64,000 nt of DNA, taken from NCBI RefSeq assembly GCF_054482525.1, contig NZ_CM137006.1. One strand, written 5' to 3'. The position numbers were made by a program, and so were the translations under genes. A model generated the notes under the pieces. That model did not search any database. It was not told where the DNA came from and worked only from the letters and a program-made list of their open reading frames with translations. Of this stretch, positions 8,447 through 46,240 are shown piece by piece (position 1 is the stretch's first letter; every line of letters starts with the position of its first letter).

Positions 8447-8463
8447 TTCTGTGTAGTTCCATC

Positions 8464-8931: not shown

Positions 8932-8971
8932 TTATCTCACCTGAAATATTTTCACATTGGTAATAAAACTA

Positions 8972-10378: not shown

Positions 10379-10541
10379 TGGGGGCATCTCCCTGGACCGA
10401 ACACAGAATGCCCCCACTTATGCCCCCAACTGCGACTTGATTTCGGTTGAGTCCAGTTGATAACAGGAGATAAGATACGGGCCAGAAACCGCAGTATACG
10501 GGCTTTTAGTTGATTTCGGTAGACTTGGGAAGAGTTTGAAA

Positions 10542-10617
10542 TGGTGCCGATAATAGGAGTCGAACCTACGACCTTCGCATTACGAATGCGCTGCTCTACC
10601 AACTGAGCTATATCGGC
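10542..10617 (-). tRNA. thrW: tRNA-Thr (anticodon CGU), thrW-like
   Basis: Reverse complement reads GCCGATATAGCTCAGTTGGTAGAGCAGCGCATTCGTAATGCGAAGGTCGTAGGTTCGACTCCTATTATCGGCACCA, 76 nt with CCA end and anticodon loop TTCGTAA. Confidence 0.9.
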
Positions 10618-10731
10618 CCTGAAAGGACATGTTCACGAACGTGAATCACGGTGGACAAGGTTAAAACTAACCGGGCGATGCGTCAATGGCCTTGTGAATC
10701 AAATGGCTACTTTTGCATCACCCGATTTTAT

Positions 10732-11985: not shown

Positions 11986-11996
11986 CGGCCTGCTCC

Positions 11997-27741: not shown

Positions 27742-30186
27742 ATGATGATTTTGAGTATTCTCGCTACGGTTGTCCTGCTCGGCGCGTTGTTCTATCACCG
27801 CGTGAGCTTATTTATCAGCAGTCTGATTTTGCTCGCCTGGACAGCCGCCCTCGGCGTTGCTGGTCTGTGGTCGGCGTGGGTACTGGTGCCTCTGGCCATT
27901 ATCCTCGTGCCATTTAACTTTGCGCCTATGCGTAAGTCGATGATTTCCGCGCCGGTATTTCGCGGTTTCCGTAAGGTAATGCCGCCGATGTCGCGCACTG
28001 AGAAAGAAGCAATCGACGCAGGCACCACATGGTGGGAAGGCGATTTGTTCCAGGGCAAGCCGGACTGGAAAAAGCTGCATAACTATCCGCAGCCGCGCCT
28101 GACCGCAGAAGAGCAAGCGTTTCTCGACGGCCCGGTAGAAGAAGCCTGCCGGATGGCGAATGATTTCCAGATTACTCATGAGCTGGCTGATTTGCCGCCG
28201 GAGTTGTGGGCGTACCTTAAAGAGCATCGTTTCTTCGCGATGATCATCAAAAAAGAGTACGGCGGGCTGGAGTTCTCGGCTTATGCCCAGTCTCGCGTGC
28301 TGCAAAAACTCTCCGGCGTGAGCGGGATCCTGGCGATTACCGTCGGCGTGCCAAACTCATTAGGCCCGGGTGAGCTACTGCAACATTACGGCACTGACGA
28401 GCAGAAAGATCACTATCTGCCGCGTCTGGCGCGTGGTCAGGAAATCCCTTGCTTTGCACTGACCAGCCCGGAAGCGGGTTCCGATGCGGGCGCGATTCCG
28501 GATACCGGGATTGTCTGCATGGGTGAATGGCAGGGCCAGCAGGTGCTGGGAATGCGTCTGACCTGGAACAAACGCTACATTACGCTGGCACCGATTGCGA
28601 CTGTGCTTGGCCTGGCATTTAAACTCTCCGACCCGGAAAAACTGCTGGGTGGCGCAGAAGATTTAGGTATTACCTGTGCGCTGATCCCGACTACCACGCC
28701 GGGCGTGGAAATTGGTCGTCGCCACTTCCCGCTGAACGTACCGTTCCAGAACGGACCGACGCGAGGTAAAGATGTGTTCGTGCCGATCGATTACATCATC
28801 GGCGGGCCGAAAATGGCCGGGCAAGGCTGGCGGATGCTGGTGGAGTGCCTCTCGGTAGGCCGCGGCATCACCCTGCCTTCCAACTCAACCGGCGGCGTGA
28901 AATCGGTAGCGCTGGCAACGGGTGCGTATGCGCACATTCGCCGTCAGTTCAAAATTTCTATTGGTAAGATGGAAGGGATTGAAGAGCCGCTGGCGCGTAT
29001 TGCCGGTAATGCCTATGTGATGGATGCTGCGGCCTCGCTGATTACCTACGGCATTATGCTCGGTGAAAAACCTGCCGTGCTGTCGGCTATCGTTAAGTAT
29101 CACTGTACCCACCGCGGGCAGCAGTCGATTATTGATGCGATGGATATCACTGGTGGCAAAGGCATTATGCTCGGGCAGAGCAACTTCCTGGCGCGTGCTT
29201 ATCAGGGCGCGCCGATTGCCATCACCGTTGAAGGGGCTAACATTCTGACCCGCAGCATGATGATCTTCGGACAAGGAGCGATTCGTTGCCATCCGTACGT
29301 GCTGGAAGAGATGGAAGCGGCGAAGAACAATGACGTCAACGCGTTCGATAAACTGCTGTTCAAACATATCGGTCACGTCGGTAGCAACAAAGTTCGCAGC
29401 TTCTGGCTGGGCCTGACGCGCGGTTTAACCAGCAGCACGCCAACCGGTGATGCCACTAAACGCTACTATCAACACCTGAACCGCCTGAGCGCCAACCTCG
29501 CCCTGCTTTCTGATGTCTCGATGGCTGTGCTGGGCGGCAGCCTGAAACGTCGCGAGCGTATCTCGGCACGTCTGGGGGATATTTTAAGCCAGCTTTACCT
29601 CGCCTCTGCCGTTCTGAAGCGTTATGACGACGAAGGCCGTAATGAAGCCGATCTGCCGCTGGTGCACTGGGGCGTACAGGATGCGCTGTATCAGGCAGAA
29701 CAGGCGATGGACGATTTACTGCAAAACTTCCCGAACCGCGTGGTTGCCGGGCTGCTGAATGTGGTGATCTTCCCGACCGGACGTCATTATCTGGCACCTT
29801 CTGACAAGCTGGATCATAAGGTGGCGAAGATTTTACAAGTGCCGAACGCCACCCGTTCACGTATTGGTCGCGGTCAGTACCTGACGCCGAGCGAGCATAA
29901 CCCGGTTGGTTTACTGGAAGAGGCGCTGGTGGATGTGATTGCCGCCGACCCAATTCATCAGCGGATCTGTAAAGAGCTGGGTAAAAACCTGCCGTTTACC
30001 CGTCTGGATGAACTGGCGCATAACGCGCTGGCGAAGGGGCTGATTGATAAAGATGAAGCCGCTATTCTTGTGAAAGCTGAAGAAAGCCGTCTGCGCAGTA
30101 TTAATGTTGATGACTTTGATCCGGAAGAGCTTGCGACGAAGCCGGTAAAGTTGCCGGAGAAAGTGCGAAAAGTTGAAGCCGCGTAA
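27742..30186 (+). CDS. fadE: acyl-CoA dehydrogenase FadE
   Basis: ORF 27664..30186; FadE-like sequence starts at [24 protein letters not shown] (814 aa). Confidence 0.95.
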
Positions 30187-30195
30187 TTGAATAAC

Positions 30196-30219
30196 GGAGC
30201 CGAAAGGCTCCGTTTCTTT
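30196..30219. terminator. rho-independent terminator after fadE (ggagccgaaaggctcc hairpin + gtttcttt)
   Basis: Hairpin and T-run read directly; lies between convergent fadE and ivy. Confidence 0.65.
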
Positions 30220-30228
30220 ATCCGCTAA

Positions 30229-30702
30229 TTATTTAAAATTAAAGCCATCCGGATGGTTTTCCAGGCTGCCGGTCAACGCCGCGAACAGCACCGTTTTACG
30301 ATCAATCGAAAGCGCATCGTTCACATTCAACCAGGTGAGTTTCTCTTGCGATGTTTTCTCATCAATGGTCGAGAACAGCCCCGTCATCTGATTAGATTTC
30401 TCGGACCACATCACAGCGATACGTTGCGAGCCACAGTCATGCGGTTTGCACGCGCTCATAACCTGATACGTCTCATCTCCCAACGTTACGGTTTGTGCGG
30501 GAGTATAAGTACCGCCTTTCATCACCCATGCAGGTAGCTTATGCCCTTGCACCATCTGATTAAACGCAGCTTTGGTGGTTTCGCCCTTTGCAAGGCTGCT
30601 AATGGTTAAATCATCCTGCGCCATTGCACTGGTGGCGATGACCAGTGCGGCGACTGTCGTTATTGCCTTAAACATCATTCCTCCCGAGCTTATCCTGCCC
30701 AT
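30229..30702 (-). CDS. ivy: inhibitor of vertebrate lysozyme Ivy
   Basis: 157 aa translation matches Ivy (…MMFKAITTVAALVIATSAMAQDDLT…CKPHDCG…). Confidence 0.9.
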   Translation of the reverse strand: MGRISSGGMMFKAITTVAALVIATSAMAQDDLTISSLAKGETTKAAFNQMVQGHKLPAWVMKGGTYTPAQTVTLGDETYQVMSACKPHDCGSQRIAVMWSEKSNQMTGLFSTIDEKTSQEKLTWLNVNDALSIDRKTVLFAALTGSLENHPDGFNFK

Positions 30703-30855
30703 GTTATTAACCTCCTAAAGCCTGGCGATAACACGATAATTTGCAAATCAGATATTTCCAATATCAGCATTTGTTATCAATTTATTCTGCGCTAAGGCAA
30801 CTGCCTGATAAGGTGTTAAAGTTATAAAACCCTTCGCATAAAGGAGTTGTACACC

Positions 30856-31626
30856 GTGCCTGGTTTGAAGATTACGCTTTTGCAGCAACCACTGGTGTGG
30901 ATGGATGGTCCTGCCAACCTGCGCCATTTTGATCGTCAACTGGAAGGTATTACCGGACGCGATGTGATCGTTCTACCGGAGATGTTTACCAGCGGCTTTG
31001 CCATGGAAGCGGCAGCTTCGTCGCTAGCACAAGATGACGTAGTGAACTGGATGACAGCCAAAGCGCAGCAGTGCAATGCGCTGATTGCAGGCAGTGTTGC
31101 ATTACAAACGGAGTCTGGTTCGGTTAACCGCTTTTTGCTGGTTGAGCCGGGCGGCACGGTACATTTTTATGATAAGCGTCATCTGTTCCGCATGGCAGAT
31201 GAGCATCTGCATTATAAAGCGGGCAATGAGCGAGTGATTGTGGAATGGCGCGGCTGGCGTATTTTACCGCTGGTGTGCTACGACTTACGTTTTCCGGTGT
31301 GGTCGCGCAATCTCAACGATTATGACCTCGCCATCTACGTTGCCAACTGGCCTGCCCCGCGCTCTCTGCACTGGCAGGCATTGCTGACGGCCCGTGCGAT
31401 TGAGAATCAGGCGTATGTGGCGGGATGTAATCGCGTCGGCAGCGATGGCAACGGCTGCCATTATCGCGGTGACAGCCGGGTGATTAATCCACAAGGTGAG
31501 ATTATCGCTACTGCCGACGCTCATCAGGCAACGCGCATTGATGCGGAACTGTCGATGATGGCGTTGCGGGAGTATAGAGAAAAGTTTCCGGCATGGCGGG
31601 ATGCGGATGAGTTTAGGTTGTGGTGA
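30856..31626 (+). CDS. yafV: C-N hydrolase (omega-amidase) YafV
   Basis: ORF 30847..31626; YafV-like sequence begins at the GTG at 30856 (PGLKITLLQQPLVWMDGPANL...). Confidence 0.9.
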   Translation: MPGLKITLLQQPLVWMDGPANLRHFDRQLEGITGRDVIVLPEMFTSGFAMEAAASSLAQDDVVNWMTAKAQQCNALIAGSVALQTESGSVNRFLLVEPGGTVHFYDKRHLFRMADEHLHYKAGNERVIVEWRGWRILPLVCYDLRFPVWSRNLNDYDLAIYVANWPAPRSLHWQALLTARAIENQAYVAGCNRVGSDGNGCHYRGDSRVINPQGEIIATADAHQATRIDAELSMMALREYREKFPAWRDADEFRLW

Positions 31627-31664
31627 GTGGGTGTTGTGTTTAGGGGCGGGGTAAGACTACGGGT

Positions 31665-31721
31665 CAGGGCAAGATTACGAAAGCCCGCTCCCCGCAAGGA
31701 CTGATGCCAGGTAGTTTCTGT
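31665..31721. repeat. ~57-bp direct repeat copy 1 (duplicate of the H-repeat element 3' end)
   Basis: cagggcaagattacgaaagcccgctccccgcaaggactgatgccaggtagtttctgt recurs with 2 mismatches at 31798..31855. Confidence 0.7.
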
Positions 31722-31797
31722 GAGTCTGTTTACCATTCTGTGTAAATGCCTTTCTCAGAAGTGACCGTCAAGGCGGTCACCGAATTCGATAATAAAG

Positions 31798-31855
31798 CCA
31801 GGGCAAGATTACGAAAGCCCGCTCCCTGCAAGGACTGACGCCAGGTAGTTTCTGT
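31798..31855. repeat. ~57-bp direct repeat copy 2, overlapping the 3' end of the H-repeat transposase gene
   Basis: Near-identical to 31665..31721; overlaps the stop codon region of the ORF at 31809..32945. Confidence 0.7.
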
Positions 31856-32945
31856 CCATGGCTGCTTTTCGCATCTTACGTCTTAACCCTGCCTTGAATA
31901 CATTATCATTCGTTAAAATATTAATAGCGATGTGCCGTATCCCTGAAAATAATTCTGCGGCGTTTCCTCTTCTTATTTTGCAGTCGTCTTCATTCATTAC
32001 CACGTCCAGACGCCAGTGCAGCTTATTCTCCACGTGCCAGTGATTTCGGATCGCTGTGGCGAACTTTTCTGCGGTTAAATCAGCAGAACTGATATAATAT
32101 CTGACCGTCATTTCTGGCTCTTTCTTTTGTTCTGCTATTATTGACCGAAAGGAGACTGCCACGCATAATTTCTTCAGTCCTTTCCATTCAAACGTGAAAT
32201 CAATAAGTTCATCAGGGACATCGCAAACAATATGAAGACGGATTTCTTCTCTGCCGTGACTCTTTTCACTTATTTCGTAACTGTCATGCTCTGGATTATT
32301 TAATTCTTTCAGCGGAAATTTTCCATCAAAGGCTTTATTTAGTCGTCCCTGATTTCCTTTTACAGCGAATAAATAATCACCGCCCTGTTTTTGCATCTTC
32401 TCTGCAATATCTTTCTGGCAACCCATCGCATCAGTTGTGATGATTTTTCCTTTAATATCCAGCATCTTAAGAAGTTCAGGGATAGCTGTGATCTCATTGG
32501 ATTTCTCATCCGTCCTGATCTGTCCGATAACCAGACTGTGCATTGTTGAGAACGCACTAATGACATGAATCGCTCCCTTGCGGCGACTCTTGTCATAAGA
32601 ATGCCGGAGTGTTTTTCCATCAATTGCGATGACGTCTTTATCATCTGAAGTATGGCAATCTCGCATCCAGTTAATAAAGCACTCGTGAAATTTTGCAGGA
32701 CTGATACAGGATACAACTCTGGCGATGGTATCGTGAACAGGAATACCATTTTCAAAATCACCGTATTGTTTTAAAAAATCGAGATGTGTTTCCCCAAAAT
32801 CCTCTATATCTTCCCAACCTTCCGCACCCGAAATAACGGCACAAATAGTCAACAGTAGAATATCCGATAATTTATTTTCCACTTTCCAGCCTTGTCTGTA
32901 ATCGGGGATAATAGAAATATGTTCCATCAATTTTTTAAGCTCCAT
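31809..32945 (-). CDS. H-repeat-associated protein (ISAs1-family transposase, YhhI/YdcC-like)
   Basis: 378 aa translation resembles E. coli H-repeat proteins that accompany Rhs elements ([32 protein letters not shown]...). Confidence 0.8.
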
Positions 32946-33225
32946 TTTGTTCTCCTTAATTATGTAAGGAGTATTTGATCATGTATAAGCAATAAAAAAC
33001 AGCTTTAGGTAATGAGGAATATCTCAATTTTTAAACATAAAATGCGAATTACTTAGTACAAAAAAGCAGCGTTACGTGATCTTTCCCTGGTCCCTGTCCC
33101 GGATTGTAGTACCGGTGCCAGTTGTAGTGCAGTTCGGATTCGTCGTCATACTGCTAGCCCGGATGGCGGAGCAGTTGCTCTAGTCACTCAGAATATTGTA
33201 ATAGTGATAGAGTGCAGTGCCGGTT

Positions 33226-33624
33226 TCAATATCCTAACGCTGGTCTTTTGCCTGTATTAACTGATTTAGCTGGTTTGCTACATATTAATGCCTTCAGATT
33301 TTCCCTTTCCTTGTCTGTGATACTGTCGCAAACCCTACTAGCCCATTCTACTTCACTCTTCTCCAGGCATTCTATTTTCTTATTGCTCATTGTTCTAATG
33401 TTTGGTGTTGCATCTCCATTTAATAACATCCATGTTTCATTTTTCTTCATAAAACATCTTCCATTATGTTCAAAGATATTAGGTGTGAATATATTATCAG
33501 AATCCCATGTTACGACTTGCTCGAGGGCTATATTATCTTGATAGTCCATGCCAGCATTATAATAATCACAAGATATAATTATCATGGAAATAATTATCAC
33601 TAATATATTCCCAAGCATTTCCAT
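33226..33624 (-). CDS. hypothetical small protein with N-terminal hydrophobic signal/lipobox-like segment; candidate Rhs immunity protein
   Basis: 132 aa AT-rich ORF immediately downstream of the Rhs gene; N-terminus ILVIIISMIIISC. Confidence 0.35.
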   Translation of the reverse strand: MEMLGNILVIIISMIIISCDYYNAGMDYQDNIALEQVVTWDSDNIFTPNIFEHNGRCFMKKNETWMLLNGDATPNIRTMSNKKIECLEKSEVEWASRVCDSITDKERENLKALICSKPAKSVNTGKRPALGY

Positions 33625-33873
33625 TTACTTTACCTCTTGAAATTCAAATGGGAATCCAGTGAAAGGACCTTTAGGCATAATATATCTTTGATATCCATAA
33701 AGCTCACCGAGCACTTGTAGGCTTATAGGCGCATTTGTATTCATAGAGGGGTTGTTAAACCCGCACGCCTCAAAAATCATGTTCGTTCGGCTAAAACAAT
33801 TATTTAAAACAGGAAGAGGCCCGAGGTTAATAGTTTTTAGTTTTTTATTAAGGTCTATTGCCTTATTCATCAT
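33625..33873 (-). CDS. hypothetical small protein downstream of Rhs (candidate immunity or orphan toxin-tip fragment)
   Basis: 82 aa AT-rich ORF in the same frame as the Rhs gene, beginning 11 codons after its stop. Confidence 0.3.
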   Translation of the reverse strand: MMNKAIDLNKKLKTINLGPLPVLNNCFSRTNMIFEACGFNNPSMNTNAPISLQVLGELYGYQRYIMPKGPFTGFPFEFQEVK

Positions 33874-33906
33874 ACATTGTTCTTCTTCATCTGTTGTATC
33901 TATTAT

Positions 33907-36900
33907 TCAAATCCAGGTATCTCTGCGGGGTTGCATCTTTTTAAAATAATCAGAGACAGAGGCTCCCATCTCATCCCCAGTTCCCGAACTCATTAATCCA
34001 TATCGATTTGCCGCCGCAGCATGCCCAAAAGGATTATCAGGAACGGGGCCGTTACCTATTATCATAGTACTAAGCCCTAATGGATCAACGTGTTGCACTG
34101 GATTCAGCGGATATTGGTACAGATTCCATCCCCCCTTCAGCCCAATCGGGTCCTGGATGATATACCGCCCCTGCAACGGATCGTAGTACCGGTGACGGTT
34201 ATAATACAGCCCCGACTCCTCATCGTGTTGCTGCCCTGGCAGACGGTACGGCTGGTGCAGGTGATGCGGGTTTTCCTCATTCAGCAGGTTGCCCCATTCA
34301 TCATACTCCCCGCTCCACGCCGTATTTCCGTCTTCGCTGATGAGCGCCAGCGGCAGGCCCCGGTGGTCGCAGTGGTAAAGATGAACTTTTCGCGCCGGTG
34401 TGTATTCCGGCTCCACCTGTTTTTCCAGTTGCTCCACCGTCAGCCCGCACTGCGCAAGCCACGCCCGGCTTTCACTGCTCACGCGGTCTGCCCGGATTTC
34501 CCCCTCCAGCCTGTCCAGCAGCCGCACCAGTTCAGCCGGGAACACCACGCCGTGTCCGTCCTCGCTCCCTTCCTGCTGGAGCTTCTCCGCCAGGCTCCGC
34601 CGCTGCGTTTTCTCCCGCTCGCCGTTGTCTGTTTCGATGCGGATGAGCGGTGTGAAGCTTCCCGGCTCGTATACCGTCTGGATACGTGTGCTGTCGGTCT
34701 GCACCGTCGTCAGGTGGTCGCCGTCCCAGCCGTACCACGTCACCTCCGGTTTACGCGACAGCGACATCCACCCCGTCAGGTCACGCTCCCGCCGCCATAC
34801 CCGTTTCGCCATTCGCCGTCCCAGCGGGTCGTAGAGGTAGCGGCTCTCGACCAGTGGCTCTCCATGCTGTATCCGCGTGTAGAACACCAGGCGGTGCTGG
34901 CTGTCGTAGTGGTGGGTCCGCTCGTCGTCCGTCCGTATCACACCCGCCGGGATGCGGTCCGTCTTCTCCGTCAGCCTGCCGTATTCATCGTGGCGGTAGA
35001 CATAGTGCGCATCCTCCGCGATGCGGTTATCCGGCCACACTGTGAGTGTACTGTCCGGGTGCAGCTCCGGGTCCGGCAGCCGGTTGCCCGCCGGGTCCGT
35101 GGCATACGGGATGCGGATGTCCAGGTCCGGTGCGAGGGTGCGCACGCTCTCCAGCCTGCCCGTGGCGCTGTAGCCGTATTCCCGCGTCTGTCGCGGGCCG
35201 CTGATGCGCACCAGGTCGCCGTTGTCATTCCACCCGTAGTCACGGTCATACACCAGGCTGTTCAGGTGCTGACTCTGTAACTGACCTGCGGGGGTGTATG
35301 TGCTGGTCAGTTCATATGCGGAATTACTGCCTGCCATGCTGCCGAAGCTGCGCACCGTCTCACGGTGCAGCCTGTCCCGCGTATACTCGACCAGCGGCGT
35401 CCCGCCCAGCTTCATTCCCGCCAGGTAACCGCTGCCATACGTCAGCCACTCCACCGGCGGCAGGCTGTCCGGCGTGACGCGGTTTGCCAGCCCCTGTTCG
35501 TTGTATGCCTGTTTCGTCTCATGCTGCCACAGCAGTTCCCCCGTCTCCGGGTTCTTCACCGTCTGGCGCTCACTGGTCAGACGGCCTTTATCGTCATAGC
35601 CGTAGTGGACCGCCACACGGTGGCCTTCACTGGTATGGCTGAGGGTGGTTAACCACCCGTGCTCATCCTACTGCCACTGCTCTGCCGGGTCGCCGTTCAC
35701 CGTCCGGTGCGTGATGCGGTCTGCTTCATCGTAGTACCACTGCGTGACCTGCCCCTCATCCTCGCTGCGGATGAGCTGCCCTGTGGCGCTGTACCGGTAA
35801 CGCTGTGTCCTGCCATCAAAGCCGCGCTGCTCCGTCAGGCGGTCCAGCACATCGTAGGTAAATTCACTCCGGCTGCCGTTCTCGTTGGTCAGCACGGTGA
35901 TGCGCCCGGCAGCGTCATACCCCATGCTGCGCGTCAGCCCGCCTTCCGTCACACTCACCGGACGCCCGCGTTTATCATATGCGATGGTGCTGCGTTTACC
36001 GTCCGGTGATATCGTTGCTGTCAGGTCGCCTGCGGCACTGTACTCATAACGGGTTTCACGCCCCTGCGCATCCTTCTGCCCTGTCAGCCTGCCGCGGCTG
36101 TCATAGAGACTATAAATACTGAGACCTTCCTCCCGGTGAACGGCGATTTGTTGACCGTACCGGTCATACTCATACCGCGTCATGTACCCCGAGCAGTCCG
36201 TGAAGGTCCGAAGCTGACCGTACCGGTTTCGCGTTATTCTCCGCGTTACCCCGATTCCGTCTTCCACCGCGCCGGGCAGGCTACTGCGGGGGGGAGTCAT
36301 AAAACCAGCGCGTAATGTTACCGTTGCGCGAGGTCTCTTCTGCCAGTCGGCCCTGACGGTCATATTTCCGGCTGCTGCGTAAACCATCCGGATATGTCAC
36401 TGAAGTCAGTTGCAACTGGCTGTTATAGCCATACCGCACCGTCCTGCCGTCCGGCAGTATCACTGAAGTCAGCTTTCCAGACGCCATATGCAGCCGGTAC
36501 ACCGTCCGCCGCCCCGCCGCATCCGTCTGCGCCTTCAGCCTCCCCGCCTCATCATACTCGCTGCGGGTGATGCTCCCGTCCGCATGCTCCTTCTTCACCA
36601 CCCGCTTCAGGCCACCTTCGCCTTCCGTGTACAGCACCTCCCGCCGGTTCAGGCTGTCCGTGATGGTCACACGGTCCTGCCCGTACTCAAAGCGGTAGTC
36701 AAGTCCCTCCGGGTTGACCTGCTCCGTCACCCGACCGGTATCATCATACCGGTAGCGGCTCTCCGGCCTCCCTGCATAATGGTGCGCCACCATCCGCCCG
36801 GCGTGCTCCGCATCATAAGTAAACCCGCGCACCTGCGTCCCGCTGCGGTCATACACCGCCCGCAGTTCTCCGCTGGCCGTGTACGTGTAGCGCGCCAGCG

Positions 36901-37855
36901 GCGCAGTCGGCTGTTCATCCGGGTATGCCGGGTCGTGTGTCAGCCACACCGCCTCCAGCCGGATACCGTTATCGGCACCGTATTCTGTACCGGCGGGCAG
37001 CGTGTCGGGGAAAGCTGAAGAAGAGGAAGCAGAACGGGGACCTGCAGGGGAAGATAAAGACGTGGCGCGCTGTTTACGGAAGGCTTCCGCCCGCTGCGCC
37101 TGCGTGGTCAGCGCCAGGTGAAAACGACGGCCCGCGCCGTCCGTCACCCTGGTGATTTCGCCAGCCAGTTCGCCTGCGGCCTCGCGGTGGAAAGCCAGTG
37201 AAAGCCCGAAACCGTCCACCACGCCCGTCAGCACCCGGTATGCAGGCGGCTCCGGCGGCAGCACTTCGTCCGCCTCCGGCACCCGCTCCGGCCAGCCGAG
37301 TATCCACCACGGCCCCTGAAGGCTGTTTGCCGCCAGGTACACATGCGGACTCAGGCGAACATCTTCCGGCAGCACCTGCCAGAGCGCGCTTAGCGGCTGC
37401 GAACTGTGCTGCTCCGCCACCCCGCCCCGCGCCAGCCAGAACGACTCACTGCGGCTGTAACTTATCTCGCCGGGAAACAGGGGTTCAAAGTGAATACTCC
37501 TGCCGCCACTGTCGTTGAGTATCAGGCCTTCATCGCGTATCTGTAAGCGGATATCGAAGGGGGCTTTCCAGCCGGGACCAAACACCCCCACCGGCGCGGG
37601 TGTCCTGGTTCGGTAGCTGCTGTAAGCGCGAGAAAGAATAAACGGCAGCGGGCCGGGCAGCGCAAGGTCCGTCTCGCCCGGCAGCACCTTCGCACCCAGT
37701 AGCGGGTTCACCGGGTTAGCATAGGTAATCCCTCCCGGACACACCGAGCAGGCCACTCCTGTCGGCGCACCTATCAGCCCCCCTGCTGAACCCTGCACAA
37801 TATCCAGTCCCTTGCGGGTCATGTCACCCTGCCGCGCCGCCGGTTTTCCGCTCAT
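33907..37855 (-). pseudogene. rhs: PAAR-Rhs family protein (T6SS effector type), disrupted by a +1 frameshift and an in-frame TAG
   Basis: Three consecutive ORFs (36281..37855, 35668..36387, 33907..35616) tile one Rhs protein: PAAR-like N-terminus, YD repeats, DPIGL core end. Frameshift at the G7 run 36288..36294; in-frame TAG at 35665..35667. Confidence 0.8.
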
Positions 37856-37931
37856 GGTTTATTCCTTTTCTTTTACCTTACATGTCCATACAAATAGTTA
37901 CCTATACTGTCTTTGAATATTGCCCTACCAT

Positions 37932-38381
37932 TTAAAGCCCACCTATTTCTTGCGACAGAAAAGGGATTTCTTTTTTAATCCAATCTATCATTTCATTTTT
38001 TTCAAAACATACGTTAATGCCATTCACACTTCCACATTCACCAAAACCATCAAAATAAATTTCACATTTATTATTTTTATTCGAAACAATGTCAACCCCC
38101 CATCTTATATCGTTATTCCCCTCCTTCCTGAAATACTTCATTTGCAATAAATCAATTATCTCACCAGCATAAAAATCGCTAACCCCATTCACCACCACTT
38201 TATGTTTGTATATTCTCTTGAGACCTTCCTTGCTAAGCGGGGTTAAGGTGGTAACATATGCTGGAAGATTAATTATTTCTATCGTTTTCACACTATCTAT
38301 TCCACACAATTCATTCACTCGCCCCATCCCCAATACCGAAGCAGAAAATAGAGACAATAAAACCATCAAATATTTCATCAT
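37932..38381 (-). CDS. putative secreted immunity protein for the upstream Rhs toxin
   Basis: 149 aa ORF 12 bp downstream of the Rhs C-terminal domain; signal peptide MMKYLMVLLSLFSASVLG; AT-rich. Confidence 0.45.
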   Translation of the reverse strand: MMKYLMVLLSLFSASVLGMGRVNELCGIDSVKTIEIINLPAYVTTLTPLSKEGLKRIYKHKVVVNGVSDFYAGEIIDLLQMKYFRKEGNNDIRWGVDIVSNKNNKCEIYFDGFGECGSVNGINVCFEKNEMIDWIKKEIPFLSQEIGGL

Positions 38382-38393
38382 AAAAAAATATCA

Positions 38394-41300
38394 CTATTCT
38401 GGCGTGCCATTTATTGTTGCCGTCTGCGTTGGTGTATTCACACGATAATACACTCCATTATATGCTGTTCTGGTACACTCACCTAAAGTTTTCGCCGCAT
38501 GCTGTTCAATTAAAGTGATAACTCTCGCCTCTTCTTTATTTTTATATTGTTCATCCGCACGTCTCACAAGCCCCATATAACCATCCTTATCAATAAGATA
38601 TAAGTGCGCATGAGCAAACTCATGCCCCAAACCTAATGCAGGTGATTGTGATTTCGATTTTAAATCAGTTGAACAAAATAAAGCCGCCTTACCATTCCAA
38701 TATATAGTCATTTTATCCGGGTCAAATCTAACGTCGGTTTCATCAATATACTCTATCTTTATGGTTTCTTCAGAGCTTGATAAAAAATCTATAGCTTCTT
38801 TCATTCGTGAATCTTGTTTTAAATACTCAACAGCCTGATTAAAATCACTTGGATCACCGTTAACATGGAATTTTAAACCCAAAGAATCTATAAACCGAAC
38901 AGGGTTTAATGGATATTTATACAGATTCCATTCACCTCTTAGCCCGATTGGATCCTGGGTGATATACCTTCCCTGTAGCGGGTCATAGTACCGGTTCCGG
39001 TTATAGTACAGTCCTGATTCCTCATCATGCTGCTGCCCCGGCAGACGGTATGGCTGGTGCAGGTGATGCGGGTTCTCCTCATTCAGCAGGTTGCCTCATT
39101 CATCATATTCCCCACGCCATTCCGTTGCTCCTTCGGTACTGATGAGCGCCAGCGGCAGCCCCCGGTGGTCACAGTGATAAAGATGAATTTTTCGCTCAGG
39201 TAAATAAACCGGCTCTATCTGTGCCGCCAGCCGCTCCACCGTCAGCCCGCACTGTGCCAGCCACTGGCGGCTTTCACTGCTCACGCGGTCTGCCCGGATT
39301 TCCCCCTCCAGCCTGTCCAGCATCCTCACAAGTTCTGCCGGGAACACCACACCGTGGCCGTCCTCGCTTCCTTCCTGCTGCAACTTCTCCGCCAGGCTCC
39401 GCCGCTGCGTTTTCTCCCGCTCGCCGTTGTCTGTTTCGATGCGGATGAGTGGTGTGAAGCTTCCCGGCTCGTATACCGTCTGGATCCGGCTCTGTTGTGT
39501 CTGTATCGTCGTCAGCCTGTCACCGTCCCAGCCGTACCACGTTACCTCCGGTTTACGCGACAGCGACATCCACCCCGTCAGGTCACGTACCCGCCGCCAC
39601 ACCCGTTTACCCGTCCGGCGGCCCAGCGGGTCGTAGAGGTAGCGGCTCTCCACCTGCGGCTCGCCATGCTGTATCCGCGTGTAGAACACCAGGCGGTGCT
39701 GGCTGTCGTAGTGGTGGGTCCGCTCGTCGTCCGTCCGTATCACACCCGCCGGGATGCGGTCCGTCTTCTCCGTCAGCCTGCCGTATTCATCGTGGCGGTA
39801 GACATAGTGCGCATCCTCCGCGATGCGGTTATCCGGCCACACTGTGAGTGTACTGTCCGGGTGCAGCTCCGGGTCCGGCAGCCGGTTGCCCGCCGGGTCC
39901 GTGGCATACGGGATGCGGATGTCCAGGTCCGGTGCGAGGGTGCGCACGCTCTCCAGCCTGCCCGTGGCGCTGTAGCCGTATTCCCGCGTCTGTCGCGGGC
40001 CGCTGATGCGCACCAGGTCGCCGTTGTCATTCCACCCGTAGTCACGGTCATACACCAGGCTGTTCAGGTGCTGACTCTGTAACTGACCTGCGGGGGTGTA
40101 TGTGCTGGTCAGTTCATATGCGGAATTACTGCCTGCCATGCTGCCGAAGCTGCGCACCGTCTCACGGTGCAGCCTGTCCCGCGTATACTCGACCAGCGGC
40201 GTCCCGCCCAGCTTCATTCCCGCCAGGTAACCGCTGCCATACGTCAGCCACTCCACCGGCGGCAGGCTGTCCGGCGTGACGCGGTTTGCCAGCCCCTGCT
40301 CGTTGTATGCGTGTTTCGTCTCATGCTGCCACAGCAGTTCCCCCGTCTCCGGGTTCTCCACCGTCTGGCGTTCGCCGGTCAGGCGGCCTTTATCGTCATA
40401 GCCATAGTGGACGGCAACACGGTGGCCTTCGCTCAGGTGGCTGATTTCTCTCAGCCAGCCGTGGCCATCATACTGCCACTGCTCTGCCGGTTCGCCGTTC
40501 ACCGTGCGGTGAGTGATACGGTCCGATTCATCGTAGTACCAGAGGATGACAAGCCCCTCATCTTCACTCTGCGTGAGTTTTCCGGTCAGGTCATAATGAT
40601 AACGTTGCGTCCGCCCGTCAAAGCCGCCCTGCTGTACCAGGCGGTCCAGCGCATCGTAGCTGAAGTCGCTGTGACTGCCGTTCTCGTTGGTCAGGCTGAT
40701 GACACGTCCTGCCGCGTCATACTCCATACTGCGCGTCAGCCCGCCCTGCGTGGTGCTGACCGCCTTTCCCCACGCATCGTACTGTGTCTCGCTCCGGTTG
40801 CCGTCCGGGGTGATAACGGCAGTCAGGTCGCCTGCGGCGTTGTATTCATACCGCGTTTCACGGCCCTGTGCGTCTTTCACCGAGGTTAACCGGCCACGGT
40901 TGTCATAGCGGCGGTAAAGGCTGATGCCTTCCTCGCGGTGGACCGCCGTCATCTGGCCGAAGCGGTCATACTCATAGCGGGTCTGGTAGCCCGAGCAGTC
41001 GGTGAACGCCAGCAACTGACCGTAGCGGCTCCAGGTCATCTGCCGGGTGCTGCCCGTCGCATCTGTTGTCGTGGCCGGTAATTCACTGTGCGGATTATCA
41101 TAAGCATACCGGATGACGTCCCCACTGCGCGATGTCTCCGATACCAGCCTGTCCCGCTCATCATACGCCCGGCGGCTCTCCAGCCCGTCCGGGTACACCA
41201 CCGCCGTCACCAGGTTCCCGTCGTTATAGTAAAATTTCGTCTCCCGCCCGTCCGGCGTGGTGATGTCCGTGATGTCGCCTGACACCACATTCAGACCGTA

Positions 41301-42641
41301 CTCTGTCCGCCGTCCCGCCGCGTCCGTCTGCGCCGTAAGCCGCCCCACCGGGTCATACCCGCTGCGCGTGACGCTGCCGTCCGCCAGTTCTTTTTTCACC
41401 ACCCGCTTCAGCCCGGCCCCGCCTTCTGTATGCAGCACCTCACGCCGGTTCAGGCTGTCCGTGACGGTGATGCGGTCCTGCTCATACTGGTAGCGGTAAC
41501 TCAGGCCTGCCGGGTTCAGCTGCTCCACCACCCGCCCCGCATCGTCGTAGCGGTAGCGCATCTCCGGCCTTCCCGCGTAACGGTGCGCCACCATCCGGCC
41601 CGGGTGCTGCGCGTCATACGTGAAAGCGCGCACCTGCGTATTGCTGCGGTCATATACCGCCAGCAGTTCACCGGCTTCCGTATACGTGTACCGCACCAGT
41701 GGCGCACCGGGCAGGCTCTCCGGGTATGCCGGGTCGTGCATCAGCCACACCGCCGAAAGACGGATGCCCCTGTCGGGGCCGTATTCGGTACCGGGCAGTG
41801 TGTCGGGGAACGCTGAGGCTGAGAGAGGGCGGGAACGGTCAGAAGAAGATAGCGAAGAGGTGCGGGCCTCTTCCGCACGCTGCGCCTGCGTGGTCAGCAC
41901 CAGACGGAACTCCCGCCCGGCACCGTCCGTCACGCCGGTGATTTCCCCGGCCAGGTCACCGGCGGCCTCACGCCGGTACGTCAGCGTCCGCCCGAAGCGG
42001 TCCGCCAGCCCGGTAAGCACCCGGTACGGCGGCAGCGGCGCTGGCAGTACGTCCTCAGCACCCGGCACCCGCTCTGACCACCCCAGTATCCACCACGGTC
42101 CCTGTGCGCTGTTGGTCGCCAGGTAAAGATGCGGGCTTAACCGGATATCCGGCGGCAGCGACGCCCACAGCCGTGCCAGCGTGTGGCCGTCCGGCTGCGC
42201 TGCCTTACCACCGCGAACCAGCCACATTGACTCGCTGCGGCTGTACACCGCCTCCCCCGGCAGCAGCGGCTCAAGGTGAATGCTCCGCCCGCCGTTGTCG
42301 TTGAGTATCAGTCCGTCATCACGTAGCTGTAAGCGGATATCAGAAGGCGCTTTCCAGCCGGGGCCAAAAATCCCCACCGGCGCAGGCGTCTTCGTCCGGT
42401 AGCTGCTGTAGGTGCGGGAGAGAATGAACGGCAGCGGGCCGGGCAGCGCAAGGTCCGTCTCGCCGGGCAGCACCTTCGCCCCCAGCAGCGGATTTACCGG
42501 GTTGCCCGAAGTCATCCCGCCCGGACACACCGAGCACGCCACGCCGGTGGGCGCGCCAATTCTTACACCTGCCGAACCCTGGACAATGGGACCGCCATAC
42601 TGAGTCATATCTCCCTGACGCGCCGCTGGTTTTCCGCTCAT
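38394..42641 (-). pseudogene. rhs: PAAR-Rhs family T6SS effector with HExxH (zinc-metallopeptidase-like) C-terminal domain; frame interrupted by in-frame TGA
   Basis: Main ORF 39096..42641 (1181 aa) ends at a TGA where the paralogue has TGG (Trp); the same frame continues through the DPIGL core end into a C-terminal domain containing [10 protein letters not shown]. Confidence 0.75.
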
Positions 42642-42707
42642 GATTCAATTCCTTCTTCTGTTTATTTTTAATGCTTGTTTGTTACTGAATACCGAACAGG
42701 TACGGGA

Positions 42708-44816
42708 TCAGTACTCTCTCATATCCGGCGTATCCTGCTTTTCATCAGGGGTCTTCGGTGGGGATTTCGAGGCTGCACAGTTCCAGTTAATCAACAGTGA
42801 GTCACCATTAACCTGCTCCTTACCCTGCAAATGAATTTTTGTGCCGTTGAGAAAAATTTGTCCGTCCTTAGTCAGCACCAGCCTTGCCTTACCACAGCAG
42901 AGTTCCAGATGCTCACCGCCGGAGTAAATCGCGGTCTGCCCGGTATCATCCTTTTTCGTTTTACCAACGGTGAAGGTAACGTTATTTCCGACTTTGACGT
43001 CATAACCCAGCCCGACCATCAACGATTTATGCAAACCGATCTGCGAGGACTGCATCAGGGCCACCGAGGTGTTCATAATGCCACCTACCGTCGTCTGATA
43101 CGCCACGCCCACAGTCAGCGCACGAACAAGTCCAATCGTTTCCACCTGAACAGAGCCCACTTTAATGATCTGGTTACTGCCCACCGTCTCTATCTGGTTA
43201 ACACCCACCGTCTGTATCTGATTGTTGGTAACCGCAATCATCTGATTGTTGCCAATGGTCTCAGCATGGTTGTTTATCACATCCGTGGTGCGGTTATTCA
43301 GCACCTCGGTGTTCATGTTCTTCTGCGCGTGGATGTAGACCTGTTCTTTCCCTGTCGCATCGTCAAACTTCAGTTCATTAAACCCGCTGCCCTTATAGGT
43401 TTTCGAACGAATGGTCATCTGCGTCTTTGTTCCCGGCAGGCTGCCGGGGGTGCGGTTTTCCTGGTGGTAGGTACGCCCCATAATAATCGGCTGGTCCGGA
43501 TCGCCGTTGAGGAAGTCCACAATGACTTCCTGACCCACACGCGGTATCGCCAGGTTGCCAAAGCCGGTGCCTGCCCACGCCTGTGCCACACGGATCCAGC
43601 ATGAACTGTCCTGGTTTGACGGGTTATAGCGGTCCCAGTTAAATTTCACCCGCACGCGGCCATGTTCATCACAGAAGATTTCTTCTCCTGCCGGTCCCGT
43701 CACGACGGCGCTCTGCGGGCCGTCCACCAGCGGTTTCAGCAACGGCTGTGGCCGCCATGTTCTGTCTGCCGGTATTACCGCAAAGTGGTTATTCAGCGTG
43801 GTACCTGAACCCCTGCGTCCCGGCACCGCCTGCGGCTGCTCGCCGTGCAGTTCACTTGCCACCACCTGCCATTCCCGGTTCAGGTTCGCCTGCGGATGCC
43901 CCGTCAGCGCAATTCGCCGTCCCGGCCATATCTCCGGCGAACGGCTTGTTCCGCGCGCCACTTCTGCGTTGTTTCGCCAGCCATCCATCTGCCAGCAGGC
44001 AAAGTTCTGCCCGTGGGCACCCTTGAAACGTCCGGGGTAGTCATACACTTCATACTGTGTGCGCTGGTAATCCTGGTGCTGGCCTTCCTGATCAAAACGC
44101 CCTGCCCAGCCGGGTCGTTTAAAGGTGTAGTCTTTGGTCACCACGGAAGATGGGCGGATTTGTGCGCTGTAGAGGAACTGGCTGATGCATAGGGTGCTCA
44201 CCTCGGTACGGGTGTTCGGATTCCAGGGGATCTCAAAGGACTCCGGCAGATAACGCACGGTGTCGCACAGGACCAGGCTCTGGTCGGTACTTTTTTGCGC
44301 GTGCTCCTCATAAAAGAAGATGCCTTCCTCCGCCGCCATCCGGCACAGGAAATCGTAATCGGTTTCGCCGTACTGGACACAAAACTCACGGGAAGGATGC
44401 GGCTCGCTGAACAGCGGACTCCACTCGGTCACCCCGTTTTCTTTCAGGATCGTCGCGAGTATGCTTTCGATGTCCTCATTCTGGAAGATACGGAAGTTCT
44501 GGCGCAGCCCTGTGCGCCACAGCGGTGGGCACACCTTCATGCTGTACAGCATCTGGTTTTTGTCGTTCTCCCCCAGTTCAAACCAGGTCACCACACCTTT
44601 CACCCGGCGCTGTACGTCATCGCCCTGCCATACCGTCAGGTAGGCCATTTTGTCCAGCACCTGCGCAAATTCAAGGGAGAGAAACTGCTGGCTGACCAGA
44701 GAGAGATCGAGGGAAAAGAGCGAAGAGAGTGACTGGTTCAGATGAAAGGAGACCACCGCAAACGCGTCCGGTGGCAGGCCGTCCACTTCCAGCGTGAAAC
44801 GTAATCCGGTTGACAT
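42708..44816 (-). CDS. vgrG: type VI secretion spike protein VgrG (TssI)
   Basis: 702 aa with VgrG-type gp27/gp5-like layout; immediately upstream of the Rhs gene. Confidence 0.9.
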   Translation of the reverse strand: MSTGLRFTLEVDGLPPDAFAVVSFHLNQSLSSLFSLDLSLVSQQFLSLEFAQVLDKMAYLTVWQGDDVQRRVKGVVTWFELGENDKNQMLYSMKVCPPLWRTGLRQNFRIFQNEDIESILATILKENGVTEWSPLFSEPHPSREFCVQYGETDYDFLCRMAAEEGIFFYEEHAQKSTDQSLVLCDTVRYLPESFEIPWNPNTRTEVSTLCISQFLYSAQIRPSSVVTKDYTFKRPGWAGRFDQEGQHQDYQRTQYEVYDYPGRFKGAHGQNFACWQMDGWRNNAEVARGTSRSPEIWPGRRIALTGHPQANLNREWQVVASELHGEQPQAVPGRRGSGTTLNNHFAVIPADRTWRPQPLLKPLVDGPQSAVVTGPAGEEIFCDEHGRVRVKFNWDRYNPSNQDSSCWIRVAQAWAGTGFGNLAIPRVGQEVIVDFLNGDPDQPIIMGRTYHQENRTPGSLPGTKTQMTIRSKTYKGSGFNELKFDDATGKEQVYIHAQKNMNTEVLNNRTTDVINNHAETIGNNQMIAVTNNQIQTVGVNQIETVGSNQIIKVGSVQVETIGLVRALTVGVAYQTTVGGIMNTSVALMQSSQIGLHKSLMVGLGYDVKVGNNVTFTVGKTKKDDTGQTAIYSGGEHLELCCGKARLVLTKDGQIFLNGTKIHLQGKEQVNGDSLLINWNCAASKSPPKTPDEKQDTPDMREY

Positions 44817-45025
44817 AGCAACCTCCGGGTTTAAGGAAAAACAGACAGTTCGCTGTTAAAGCGGCTGTAACAGTACAGTGTTACGCTTGCGTTCAGGCAC
44901 GCTACCGCCGAAGTTTCCGGCATCCGCCATCTCCCGTGAACGTAACCCCTTACTGACAACCTTTCTTTTTACGGCGTAATACAAAAACAGCATCCGGCCT
45001 AATAGCCGGATGCTGTTGGCTTAAC

Positions 45026-45544
45026 TTATGCTTCCAGCGGTGCGCGCCAGTCGTCGGCACCGGAGGTGCCAGACTTGACGTGTTCCCACTCTATTTTGCG
45101 GTAGGCCAGTGAAACTTCGAGCAACTGGGTGAACTCGCGTTTCGCCGGATCCTGGCAATGCGGCATATGCAGTTTCATATCGACAATCGTCGAATCGGTC
45201 AGGCGGGTGGTGAAATAATGCTCCTGTTTGCCTTCCACAGAGGTACGCCACCAGTGAAGTTCAGTGGTTGGCAGCATTTCGCCGGAGGCCAGTGCGTTGT
45301 ACATCAGCGGAACAGCTTTGTTCAGCGCCACGGTAAAAATGAACGGCTTGTGAGCACGCTGACCCGCAGGCTGGCCGGACTGAGGATCGGTCGGGACAGT
45401 AACGTTATGCAGGAATTCCTGCACCAGCATCTCGTCTTCGTGCCCCTGCACATAGATGTTGCCGACAGAATCAGCGGTAAATGCACCTGCAGTAATATTT
45501 CCCTGGGTCTGACCTGTGATGGAGATATAACACGGTGTTGGCAT
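45026..45544 (-). CDS. hcp: type VI secretion tube protein Hcp (TssD)
   Basis: 172 aa translation with typical Hcp sequence (MPTPCYISITGQTQGNITAGAFTADSVGNIYVQGHEDEMLVQEF...). Confidence 0.9.
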   Translation of the reverse strand: MPTPCYISITGQTQGNITAGAFTADSVGNIYVQGHEDEMLVQEFLHNVTVPTDPQSGQPAGQRAHKPFIFTVALNKAVPLMYNALASGEMLPTTELHWWRTSVEGKQEHYFTTRLTDSTIVDMKLHMPHCQDPAKREFTQLLEVSLAYRKIEWEHVKSGTSGADDWRAPLEA

Positions 45545-46240
45545 TTGTAAACTCCTTGTTAACGTGGTTAATTACTACTTACAATGACCTGCCGTTAATC
45601 CCAGACAGGCAGATGCAGCTCACTTCACGGAACCGCATCATTTTTCAGTATTTTTTACATACAAACCGAGCTAGAATTTACGGTTGTCGTAAAAACTATT
45701 TTTAAAATCATTAAATCTCTTATTCAGCAATAAGTTAATAATATATATCTGGATAACCATACCCAACTATTCAAAGTCCGTATTGCCTCCATAAAATGGC
45801 CAAAGCTGAATCATGAATAAATATTGTATTTATCCTTTCTGAATTATCATTTTGATAATTTTTGAGATATTCCTTAAAAATACCCACTTAATCAATCACA
45901 AAACAAATATATAAACAAGCAATCATCAGATTAGCTTATGTTTAATGAAATTATTGTATAATTCAATAAGTTACATAAAAGCTCTATATTTAAATTATTG
46001 CCATAATACACCTGACGCGAATTGCACAGGTTCACACAATCTATTTAACGCTTGCAGAATACCCCTCTTTACGATCGATAAAAAGTCCTTTTCTTATTTA
46101 TTTTGAAGCGTAGAATGCGGGGTGATGAAGGAGTGGTGATTTTATTTTCACCGCCATTATGGCGGCATTGCCGATATTTTTTTGCGGTACAAATATGCCG
46201 TGTTCATGGCCTGTACGAGATAACATGACGGATCACTTTT
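45545..46240. promoter_or_regulatory. AT-rich divergent hcp / tssB control region with a Fur-box-like motif near 45841-45860
   Basis: About 700 bp without convincing ORFs between divergent hcp and tssB; gaattatcattttgataatt resembles the Fur consensus. Confidence 0.35.

Follow-up and report, generated by a model that had tools for sequence, protein, structure and literature searches.

Rhs genes are rearrangement hot spots, and the family is named for recombination between rhs cores. In Salmonella Typhimurium, rhs-main and rhs-orphan share 522 bp at 95% identity, and tip-switch recombination between them has been shown experimentally (Koskiniemi et al. 2014, PMC3967940); the crossover joins the core of the upstream gene to the tip of the downstream one, with loss of the tip and immunity gene that lie between them (PMC3967940). 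The C-terminal displacement model of rhs evolution holds that homologous recombination in the core reassorts the tips (Jackson et al. 2009, PMC2935791), and the concerted evolution of tandem paralogues through gene conversion has been outlined in other systems, such as T7SS immunity gene arrays (PMC9484751).

The locus analyzed here is a tandem pair of Rhs genes. The window (the whole stretch of 64,000 nucleotides that was analyzed) is from an E. coli chromosome and covers the yafV-side end of a type VI secretion (T6SS) cluster. With coordinates rising, the gene order is yafV, ISAs1, downstream immunity gene, downstream Rhs, upstream immunity gene, upstream Rhs, VgrG, Hcp and TssB, with VgrG, both Rhs genes, both immunity genes and ISAs1 on the minus strand. 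Homologous loci carry annotated Hcp, tssB, tssC, tssE and tssF. The features of the pair and its neighbors are as follows.

42708..44816, minus strand: VgrG spike gene, intact, 702 aa, with VgrG domains, directly upstream of the Rhs pair
38394..42641, minus strand: upstream full-length Rhs copy
37932..38381, minus strand: presumed immunity gene for the upstream tip, 149 aa, signal-peptide-like N-terminus
33907..37855, minus strand: downstream full-length PAAR-like/DUF6531 Rhs copy, pseudogene
33625..33873, minus strand: downstream toxin tip (CT_x), the detached C-terminal remainder
33226..33624, minus strand: presumed immunity gene for the downstream tip, 132 aa, its function proposed from position only
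31809..32945, minus strand: transposase of the ISAs1 (H-repeat) family, at the distal end of the Rhs element

The repeats, core motif, GC/AT layout with a small downstream ORF, and VgrG linkage of a T6SS-associated Rhs polymorphic toxin were all found. RHS_repeat (PF05593) matches the upstream ORF with E = 7e-72 and three pieces of the downstream ORF with E-values of 3.4e-33, 5e-37 and 3.9e-9; the RHS core domain PF03527 matches both copies, and DUF6531 is present in both N-termini, while PAAR itself had no Pfam match. The downstream copy ends its core with a motif of the PxxxxDPxGL type, and the upstream copy carries a variant of it, DSLGL, located 3' of a TGA at 39096-39098. The upstream tip (38394-38882) contains an HEFAH motif following a 13-residue stretch, and this tip with its immunity gene forms a module with ~88.6% DNA identity to “RHS element protein dsORF-h1” modules in other E. 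coli. The 132-aa ORF of the downstream module always lies directly 3' of the CT_x tip. GC content is 60-68% in the core and 31-45% in the tip and immunity regions. The pair thus resembles the E. coli rhsD/E T6SS effectors in its YD/RHS repeats, RHS core, DUF6531, and GC-rich core with AT-rich tip, and also in the small downstream gene, the terminal ISAs1 (H-repeat), and the VgrG/Hcp genes upstream. It differs from the usual E. coli Rhs arrangement in that two full-length copies stand in tandem, rather than one gene with short orphan tips, and both are disrupted. With an ATG of its own (37855), a DUF6531 domain and a full-length core, the downstream copy is not an orphan fragment lacking an N-terminus. 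Both are full-length rhsD/E-type paralogues, and their different ancestries are visible in the 5' thirds, which are only 53-79% identical, and in the AT-rich tips, which are unrelated.

Neither Rhs reading frame is intact. The upstream copy carries a window-specific TGG>TGA change at 39096-39098 that leaves a 1181-aa core ORF and a separate tip; the same gene is intact (1417-1420 aa) in strains SCU-102 and PCN033. The downstream copy contains one frameshift near 36290, beside a run of seven G, and two stops, TAT>TAG at 35668-35670 and TGG>TGA at 33907-33909, the latter of which cuts off the toxin tip; in relatives, PGAP labels this copy “frameshifted; internal stop.” Neither copy in the window therefore retains an intact toxin-delivering reading frame, and the locus is decaying in this strain. 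By sequence, both are Rhs genes by descent and not demonstrably functional effectors here. The disruption of the two genes went unmentioned in the sequence-only reading, as did the probable origin of their identity in gene conversion.

That reading had proposed that the 3' cores of the two genes are nearly identical over roughly a kilobase, with divergent N-terminal parts. Pairwise alignment of 33907-37855 with 38394-42641 bears this out as a long contiguous block rather than short patches, with identity of 95.6% over 1150 bp (34444-35593), 98.5% over 750 bp (34844-35593) and 100% over 635 bp. The perfect runs between the copies are the following.

34862..35496, minus strand: perfect repeat, arm in the downstream copy, 635 bp, probable gene-conversion tract
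39664..40298, minus strand: perfect repeat, arm in the upstream copy, codons 782-993 of the upstream Rhs
34582..34647, minus strand: second-longest perfect run between the copies, 66 bp

The 635-bp arms form a direct repeat with an offset of 4802, and the block occupies codons 782-993 of about 1415. It lies in the core, but not at its extreme 3' end; the last 350 bp of the core (34094-34443) are only 80.6% identical. The divergence of the N-terminal parts was correctly noted, with 5' ends at 53-79% identity, and has its cause in the distinct Rhs ancestries of the two copies, which the sequence-only reading had not recognized; homology nevertheless spans the whole genes, with 34109-36226 matching 38911-41028 at 87% and 36477-37875 matching 41278-42664 at 77%. 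Adjacent core outside the block is 75-81% identical, and the two copies diverge by anything from 0% to about 47% along their length.

The two copies differ at 296 of 2153 positions across the 34094-36246 alignment. Shuffling that alignment 5000 times gave longest identical runs of 42 on average and 88 at most, as compared to the 635 observed, and a chance origin of the block was rejected. The analytic bound for a chance run of 635 bp is P ~ 3.5e-43, or P ~ 1e-31 at a flank identity of 89.4%. Within the block, none of the 211 codons shows a synonymous or non-synonymous difference, while the 3' flank has 52 synonymous and 30 non-synonymous differences in 253 codons and the 5' flank has 36 and 37, respectively, in 161 codons.

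Two sets of small ORFs within the Rhs genes had first drawn attention to the repeat. The 279-nt ORFs at 34971-35249 and 39773-40051 have the same 92-aa translation, as originally described, and also the same DNA sequence, and both fall within the 635-bp repeat; they are not antisense, however, as they lie on the minus strand, which is that of the Rhs genes, in a different frame. The ORF pair beginning at 34090 and 39354 is on the plus strand and is antisense to Rhs. The nested and antisense ORFs are rich in Ala, Arg and Thr, and no PGAP CDS is found at their positions in seven tandem relatives. They are by-products of DNA with 62-68% GC and not genes.

The same tandem was compared in seven strains: that of the window, SCU-102, PCN033, 1190, elppa4, 23CRST032 and GmM066. 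The perfect run between the copies measures 635 bp in the window, 591 bp in SCU-102, 783 bp in PCN033, 500 bp in 1190, elppa4 and 23CRST032, and 284 bp in GmM066. The downstream arm is invariant, base for base, in all seven, and the upstream arms depart from the downstream block at 0-9 positions, forming a nested mosaic of downstream-like and 19KM1831/N3-like alleles; SCU-102 and PCN033 share an extra 6 bp in the upstream arm at window position 39708. In PCN033 a further tract was found in the other copy.

35497..35668, minus strand: probable second conversion tract in the downstream copy of PCN033, with the upstream base at 27 of 27 variant sites

This tract restores TAT at the stop codon and lengthens the perfect run to 783 bp. 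As the tract lengths differ among the seven strains and the variant alleles match the paralogous copy, the comparison argues for repeated exchange between the copies. The window block differs from upstream or single-copy alleles of other strains at 2-16 positions and between its own two arms at none. It was found at an identity of at least 99% in only 36 of 3830 matching records, with a best identity of 98% elsewhere (97.8% in K-12 rhsD), and the paralogues within a genome are thus closer to each other than orthologues are between genomes. The 5' third of the downstream copy matches the intact Rhs genes of BUCT2930 and O55:H7 DEC5B at 85-98% identity (mostly 94-98%) and the upstream copy at only 70-80%, indicating that the downstream copy belongs to a distinct gene lineage and is not a recent duplicate.

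We consider the 635-bp block to be a gene-conversion tract, one product of a recurrent, patchy, two-way exchange between the copies in which the same homology would also allow deletion by crossover; from the comparative sequence evidence we place the probability of this reading at roughly 0.88. The signs expected of gene conversion were all observed, namely an excess of tract length, synonymous homogenization, paralogues more alike than orthologues, and clustered substitutions that match the paralogue. Non-reciprocal homologous recombination between direct repeats 4.8 kb apart would have produced the perfect core block, with the upstream arm overwritten from the downstream pseudogene to varying extents and the window representing the most complete overwrite. 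Transfer from the downstream pseudogene into the upstream copy is suggested by the upstream arms, which carry downstream alleles to strain-dependent extents; in PCN033 a reverse transfer, from upstream to downstream, would have repaired the stop codon. The apparent direction could instead reflect exchange with strains bearing 19KM1831-like alleles. We infer a RecA-dependent mechanism, and the direction of the individual conversions, from the comparison of genomes; no Chi sites were found inside either Rhs gene, and thus there is no mark of a RecBCD entry point.

A reciprocal crossover in the same homology would place the 5' part of the upstream gene in front of the 3' core, tip and immunity gene of the downstream one, with the loss of about 4.8 kb. 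Strain 19KM1831 carries one intact Rhs gene at the same fadE-ivy-yafV-ISAs1 ... VgrG-Hcp locus, in which the 5' 3.2 kb is 99-100% upstream-type and everything from the 3' core through the toxin tip to the immunity gene is 95-100% downstream-type. Its CT_x tip, like that of MS14384, forms part of an intact Rhs CDS of 4230 nt. A crossover that cut out the upstream tip with its immunity gene, together with the 5' part of the downstream copy, would be expected to leave just this layout. The 19KM1831 gene has no TGA at 33907 and matches the synthetic junction at 97.4%, and its main switch from downstream-type to upstream-type sequence falls between informative sites 34581 and 34648, at the 66-bp perfect run and outside the 635-bp block; for these reasons the single-Rhs allele could also be ancestral to the tandem or have been imported. 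An exact deletion product of the tandem was not found in 5426 genomes, where the best match to the synthetic junction was 97.4%. The earlier proposal that the shared core is a substrate for tip swapping or deletion is nonetheless supported by the varying tracts, the 19KM1831 chimera and the Salmonella precedent.

Several other explanations of the block were weighed against gene conversion. Extreme purifying selection on this segment of the Rhs shell, with no exchange between the copies, would be in keeping with its good conservation among genes of the rhsD/E type, where K-12 rhsD matches as noted above and many alleles match at 93-98%. Selection on protein cannot erase synonymous differences, however, and these drop to zero in the block from 52 in 253 and 36 in 161 codons at its sides; orthologues of other strains do differ at the 2-16 positions at which the two copies here agree, and one copy, being a pseudogene, is free of protein-level selection. 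We regard this as the least probable of the explanations. A recent tandem duplication, of which the block is the part yet to diverge, is extremely unlikely as well. Direct repeats that are 4.8 kb apart and stay collinear across the whole gene are what a duplication would leave, but divergence of 0% to about 47% along one gene, unrelated tips, a downstream 5' third closer to the Rhs of other lineages than to its neighbor, and tract ends that vary among close relatives are all at odds with it. Correction of one copy with reads from the other during assembly or polishing has to be considered for any perfect repeat longer than ~500 bp, a classic site of consensus errors, and the sequencing method of the window is unspecified; the window is also the only sequence examined with zero inter-arm differences, and has a private stop at 39096. 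Six independent complete genomes nevertheless show the block with only 2-9 inter-arm differences and share its left boundary at 34862, and the downstream arm is identical in every one of them, making such an artefact very unlikely.

The remaining possibility is a programmed toxin-switching cassette, with the silent downstream copy kept as a donor for variation of the pilE/pilS type. The invariant downstream block, apparently the donor, and the existence of a chimeric allele with the downstream tip would agree with this, and a superficial resemblance of rhs to antigenic-variation systems was noted by Jackson et al. (PMC2935791), while Salmonella populations evolve orphan-tip expression through recombination (PMC3967940). 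The exchanged tract, on the other hand, is part of the conserved core and leaves the protein sequence unaltered here, the block has no associated recombinase or specific site, and the downstream tip is interrupted by a stop in all seven tandem strains, with the upstream copy lacking its N-terminus in several, which points to decay rather than maintenance. A programmed system is therefore highly improbable. A looser version, in which the downstream pseudogene is a retained silent cassette whose core repeatedly overwrites the expressed upstream gene and whose tip may be re-activated by a single crossover of the 19KM1831 kind or a stop-removing conversion like that of PCN033, we hold to be very unlikely; if true, it would give the lineage a reversible change of T6SS toxin comparable to silent-cassette variation systems.

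The locus stands close to the described systems, with some disparities. As in the Salmonella main/orphan pair, a direct core repeat is shared, here 635 bp at 100% compared to 522 bp at 95%. The Salmonella partner is an orphan fragment, while here it is an entire Rhs gene that has a start of its own, a divergent 5' part and a stop-inactivated tip; and while the Salmonella fusion was obtained by experiment, the fusion layout here is represented by a natural allele at the same locus (19KM1831), the evidence being comparative sequence only. In line with C-terminal displacement, the same tip and immunity module is found on different cores, at the T6SS locus here and at yncH-nhoA (rhsE) in MS14384; the present case differs in that the partners are full-length paralogues lying side by side, and most of the exchange is conversion in short tracts that leaves the tips unchanged. 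As outlined for concerted evolution (PMC9484751), the paralogues of one genome resemble each other more than orthologues from different genomes do, and the tracts form mosaics whose end points vary; unlike the arrays outlined there, only 0.6-0.8 kb of a 4.2-kb gene is homogenized here and one of the partners is a pseudogene.

Exchange between the two copies is real but is ordinary, well-known behavior of the Rhs family, and our understanding of Rhs and T6SS biology is unchanged by it. For annotation, the pair should be read as a nonsense-truncated gene next to a pseudogene, and the locus is a caution for the assembly and polishing of such repeats. Taken together, it provides a natural example of Rhs core exchange that would be short-tract and two-way, in which a pseudogene may serve as donor and a stop codon appears to have been erased in PCN033.

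The two Rhs genes stand in tandem in a segment of E. coli chromosome whose 10-kb region 33000-43000 is up to 99.7% identical to complete E. coli genomes (SCU-102, 19KM1776, and PCN033). In the matching records the PGAP order is fadE, ivy, yafV, an ISAs1 transposase, and two small hypothetical genes, then an Rhs region comprising an "RHS element core protein" pseudogene, a hypothetical gene, a second "RHS element core protein", VgrG, and Hcp; tssB, tssC, tssE, and tssF come next at homologous loci.

Features of the Rhs region in the window
42708-44816, minus strand, VgrG (ORF and Pfam)
38394-42641, minus strand, upstream Rhs (ORF and Pfam)
37932-38381, minus strand, 149-aa ORF, candidate immunity gene
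33907-37855, minus strand, downstream Rhs (ORF and Pfam)
33625-33873, minus strand, small ORF
33226-33624, minus strand, small ORF of 399 nt, candidate immunity gene
31809-32945, minus strand, ISAs1 transposase

RHS_repeat, the RHS core domain, and DUF6531 are present in both Rhs genes (Pfam), and GC content is 60-68% in the Rhs cores and 31-45% in the tips and their downstream ORFs, a combination that makes up the classic Rhs layout. No third Rhs copy or orphan fragment was found in the window, and no inverted repeats occur in 30000-46000, so the repeats do not permit inversion. VgrG is an intact 702-aa ORF in the window and an annotated pseudogene in the closest relatives, with an internal stop in SCU-102 and frameshifts in PCN033 and 19KM1831; the window departs from these relatives at 42919, 43043, 43203, and 44773. 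At the other end of the region, a 57-nt direct repeat (31665-31721 and 31799-31855, 96% identical, spacing 134 bp) has its first copy between yafV and the IS and its second overlapping the 3' end of the transposase gene. Since the yafV-ISAs1 gap of 19KM1831 is only 36 bp, the window lineage appears to have a short duplicated piece of the IS end. A tRNA-Thr (CGT) occupies 10542-10617.

The sequence-only reading held that the 3' cores of the two Rhs genes are nearly identical and form a substrate for recombination leading to tip swap or deletion. Pairwise alignment bears out the long contiguous identity. The copies align over their full length (34109-36226 with 38911-41028 at 87%, 36477-37875 with 41278-42664 at 77%), with a weakly conserved stretch at about 36247-36476 (53-60% identity), and share a single perfect 635-bp run, 34862-35496 and 39664-40298, here called the block. 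Around the block, a 750-bp stretch is 98.5% identical and a 1150-bp stretch 95.6%, against 80.6% in the final 350 bp of the core and 74.6% on its 5' side. The two 92-aa ORFs noted in that reading are indeed identical, because both sit within the block; they lie on the Rhs strand in another frame and are not antisense to it; the 34090 and 39354 pair is antisense. Translations of such nested and antisense ORFs are Ala/Arg/Thr-rich and relatives have no annotated CDS there, marking them as by-products of GC-rich DNA.

Neither chance nor selection on the protein accounts for the block. The longest identical run in 5000 shuffles of the 296 differences over 2153 aligned positions was at most 88, against 635 observed, and an analytic bound for a 635-bp run is 3.5e-43, ruling out chance. 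Protein-level selection is rejected because the block, read in frame, has 0 synonymous and 0 non-synonymous differences in 211 codons, against 52 synonymous-only and 30 amino-acid-changing codons of 253 in its 3' flank and 36 and 37 of 161 in its 5' flank, and because one partner is a pseudogene. Recent duplication also fails as an explanation: the downstream 5' third (36500-37855) shares only 70-88% identity with the upstream copy but 85-98%, mostly 94-98%, with the intact 4233-nt Rhs that BUCT2930 and O55:H7 DEC5B carry at the same junction, preceded by a dsORF-h1 gene or a 312-nt upstream-Rhs stub. For the upstream 5' part, the single Rhs of 19KM1831 is a 99-100% match. Since the 5' parts match different lineages, the histories of the two genes are separate, and homogenisation between them has been partial. 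The window has 10 Chi sites (GCTGGTGG) where shuffles predict 2.5; none falls between 29933 and 43723, hence none inside the Rhs genes, and Chi was rejected as the recombination entry point.

In O55:H7 DEC5B (7798-8109 of the locus sequence) the upstream Rhs is cut to a 312-nt DUF6531 stub right before the intact downstream-type Rhs, one more product of deletion at this locus. An orphan Rhs fragment accompanied by genes with ankyrin and Sel1 repeats lies farther downstream. In BUCT2930 (7672-9361 of the locus sequence) the T6SS cluster is mostly gone and a truncated ISAs1 transposase abuts a VasL fragment beside the dsORF-h1 gene and the intact downstream-type Rhs, an arrangement that suggests an ISAs1-mediated deletion sparing the immunity gene and second Rhs. 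In the window, 37808-38009 links the end of the dsORF-h1-like immunity gene, across the intergenic region, to the first 48 nt of an Rhs start; these pieces recur together at about 97% identity in many genomes annotated for "dsORF-h1" only, as if Rhs-start remnants commonly trail this immunity gene.

The window was compared with six further genomes bearing the same tandem, and the longest perfect run between the copies varies among the seven sequences: 783 bp in PCN033, 635 bp in the window, 591 bp in SCU-102, 500 bp in 1190, elppa4, and 23CRST032, and 284 bp in GmM066. Every base of the downstream arm (the block in that copy) is the same in all seven, and the upstream arm differs from it at 0-9 positions, forming a nested mosaic of downstream-type alleles and alleles shared with the single-copy Rhs of 19KM1831 and N3. 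SCU-102 and PCN033 have 6 additional bp (GTAGTG, His-Tyr) at window position 39708 that neither window copy contains. The simplest reading of these patterns is repeated downstream-to-upstream conversion with varying end points, of which the window would be the most complete overwrite. The PCN033 downstream copy has 27 clustered differences from the window in 35497-35668, all 27 carrying the upstream base, and this tract would represent conversion in the opposite direction, upstream to downstream; it returns the stop TAG at 35668-35670 to TAT, so that PGAP drops the "internal stop" label for PCN033.

Among 5426 genomes, only 36 records contain the block at 99% identity or more; the best match elsewhere is 98%, and K-12 rhsD reaches 97.8%. 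Copies within one genome are thus closer than orthologues between genomes, the pattern of concerted evolution. Counts of tandem-bearing genomes from coverage statistics are unreliable, because single Rhs loci gather pieces of both query copies and because the dsORF-h1 module and 48-nt Rhs-start stub recur at numerous loci elsewhere; a workable estimate is 32-39, from the records at 99% identity or more.

At the same yafV-ISAs1 to VgrG-Hcp locus, a single intact Rhs of 4230 nt separates VgrG from the 399-nt ORF in 19KM1831.

Allele type along the 19KM1831 Rhs (window positions)
34094-34581, downstream-type
34648-34861, upstream-type
Block, uninformative
35497-35614, downstream-type
35629 to start codon, upstream-type (about 600 informative sites)

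The main type switch falls within a 66-bp perfect run (34582-34647), and strain N3 has a patchier version of the mosaic. This layout is what would be expected if a crossover between the tandem copies had deleted the upstream tip with its immunity gene, along with the 5' part of the downstream copy. The 19KM1831 gene is no exact derivative of the tandem, as it matches a synthetic deletion junction (33200-35496 joined to 40299-42700) at 97.4% and lacks the stop codon at 33907, so the single gene may be either derived from the tandem or ancestral to it. Its 97.4% was the best match to the junction in the 5426 complete E. coli genomes; none reached 99%, so none of them gives evidence that this particular tandem has collapsed at the 635-bp block. 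In MS14384 the downstream toxin tip (CT_x) and its immunity module occur on an intact 4230-nt Rhs at the yncH-nhoA (K-12 rhsE) locus, behind an orphan VgrG (6027-12830 of the locus sequence; 96.2% full-length match to the synthetic chimera), which shows movement of the module between loci as well.

Both genes carry lesions. The upstream copy, otherwise intact, has TGG changed to TGA at 39096-39098, private to the window (SCU-102, PCN033, and the downstream paralogue have TGG) and truncating the protein at residue 1181, ahead of the tip-cleavage motif and tip; this may be a sequencing error, or the gene may have been inactivated very recently. The downstream copy has a frameshift near 36290 beside a G7 run, the TAG at 35668-35670, and a TGA at 33907-33909 that cuts off the final 82 tip codons (ORF 33625-33873). 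Four of the six relatives (1190, elppa4, 23CRST032, and GmM066) also have an upstream copy without its N-terminus, and the locus is decaying in this lineage. The upstream tip (38394-38882) has an HEFAH (HExxH) motif, and its Peptidase_M91 match stays below threshold (E = 0.031; 15 bits, with the cut-off at 25); it may act as a zinc-metallopeptidase-type toxin. For CT_x, about 148 aa long in its intact form, Pfam gave no match, and the candidate immunity genes have sub-threshold Pfam matches only.

The proposed role of the shared core as a recombination substrate is supported by the variable tract lengths, the PCN033 tract, and the chimeric 19KM1831 Rhs. The biology of the finding is known, and public genomes already annotate the locus. 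Published work describes the GC-rich core with its AT-rich tip, the rhsDE subfamily, and the vgr/hcp link, and models recombination-driven tip reassortment (Jackson et al. 2009, PMC2935791); the PCN033 literature names these Rhs genes solely as candidate effectors. In Salmonella, 522 bp at 95% identity between rhs-main and rhs-orphan supports recombination, yielding a chimeric Rhs with loss of the intervening immunity gene (Koskiniemi et al. 2014, PMC3967940). The present tandem appears to work the same way; unlike the Salmonella pair, its downstream partner is a full-length paralogue, and exchange here is mostly silent, short-tract conversion within the core.
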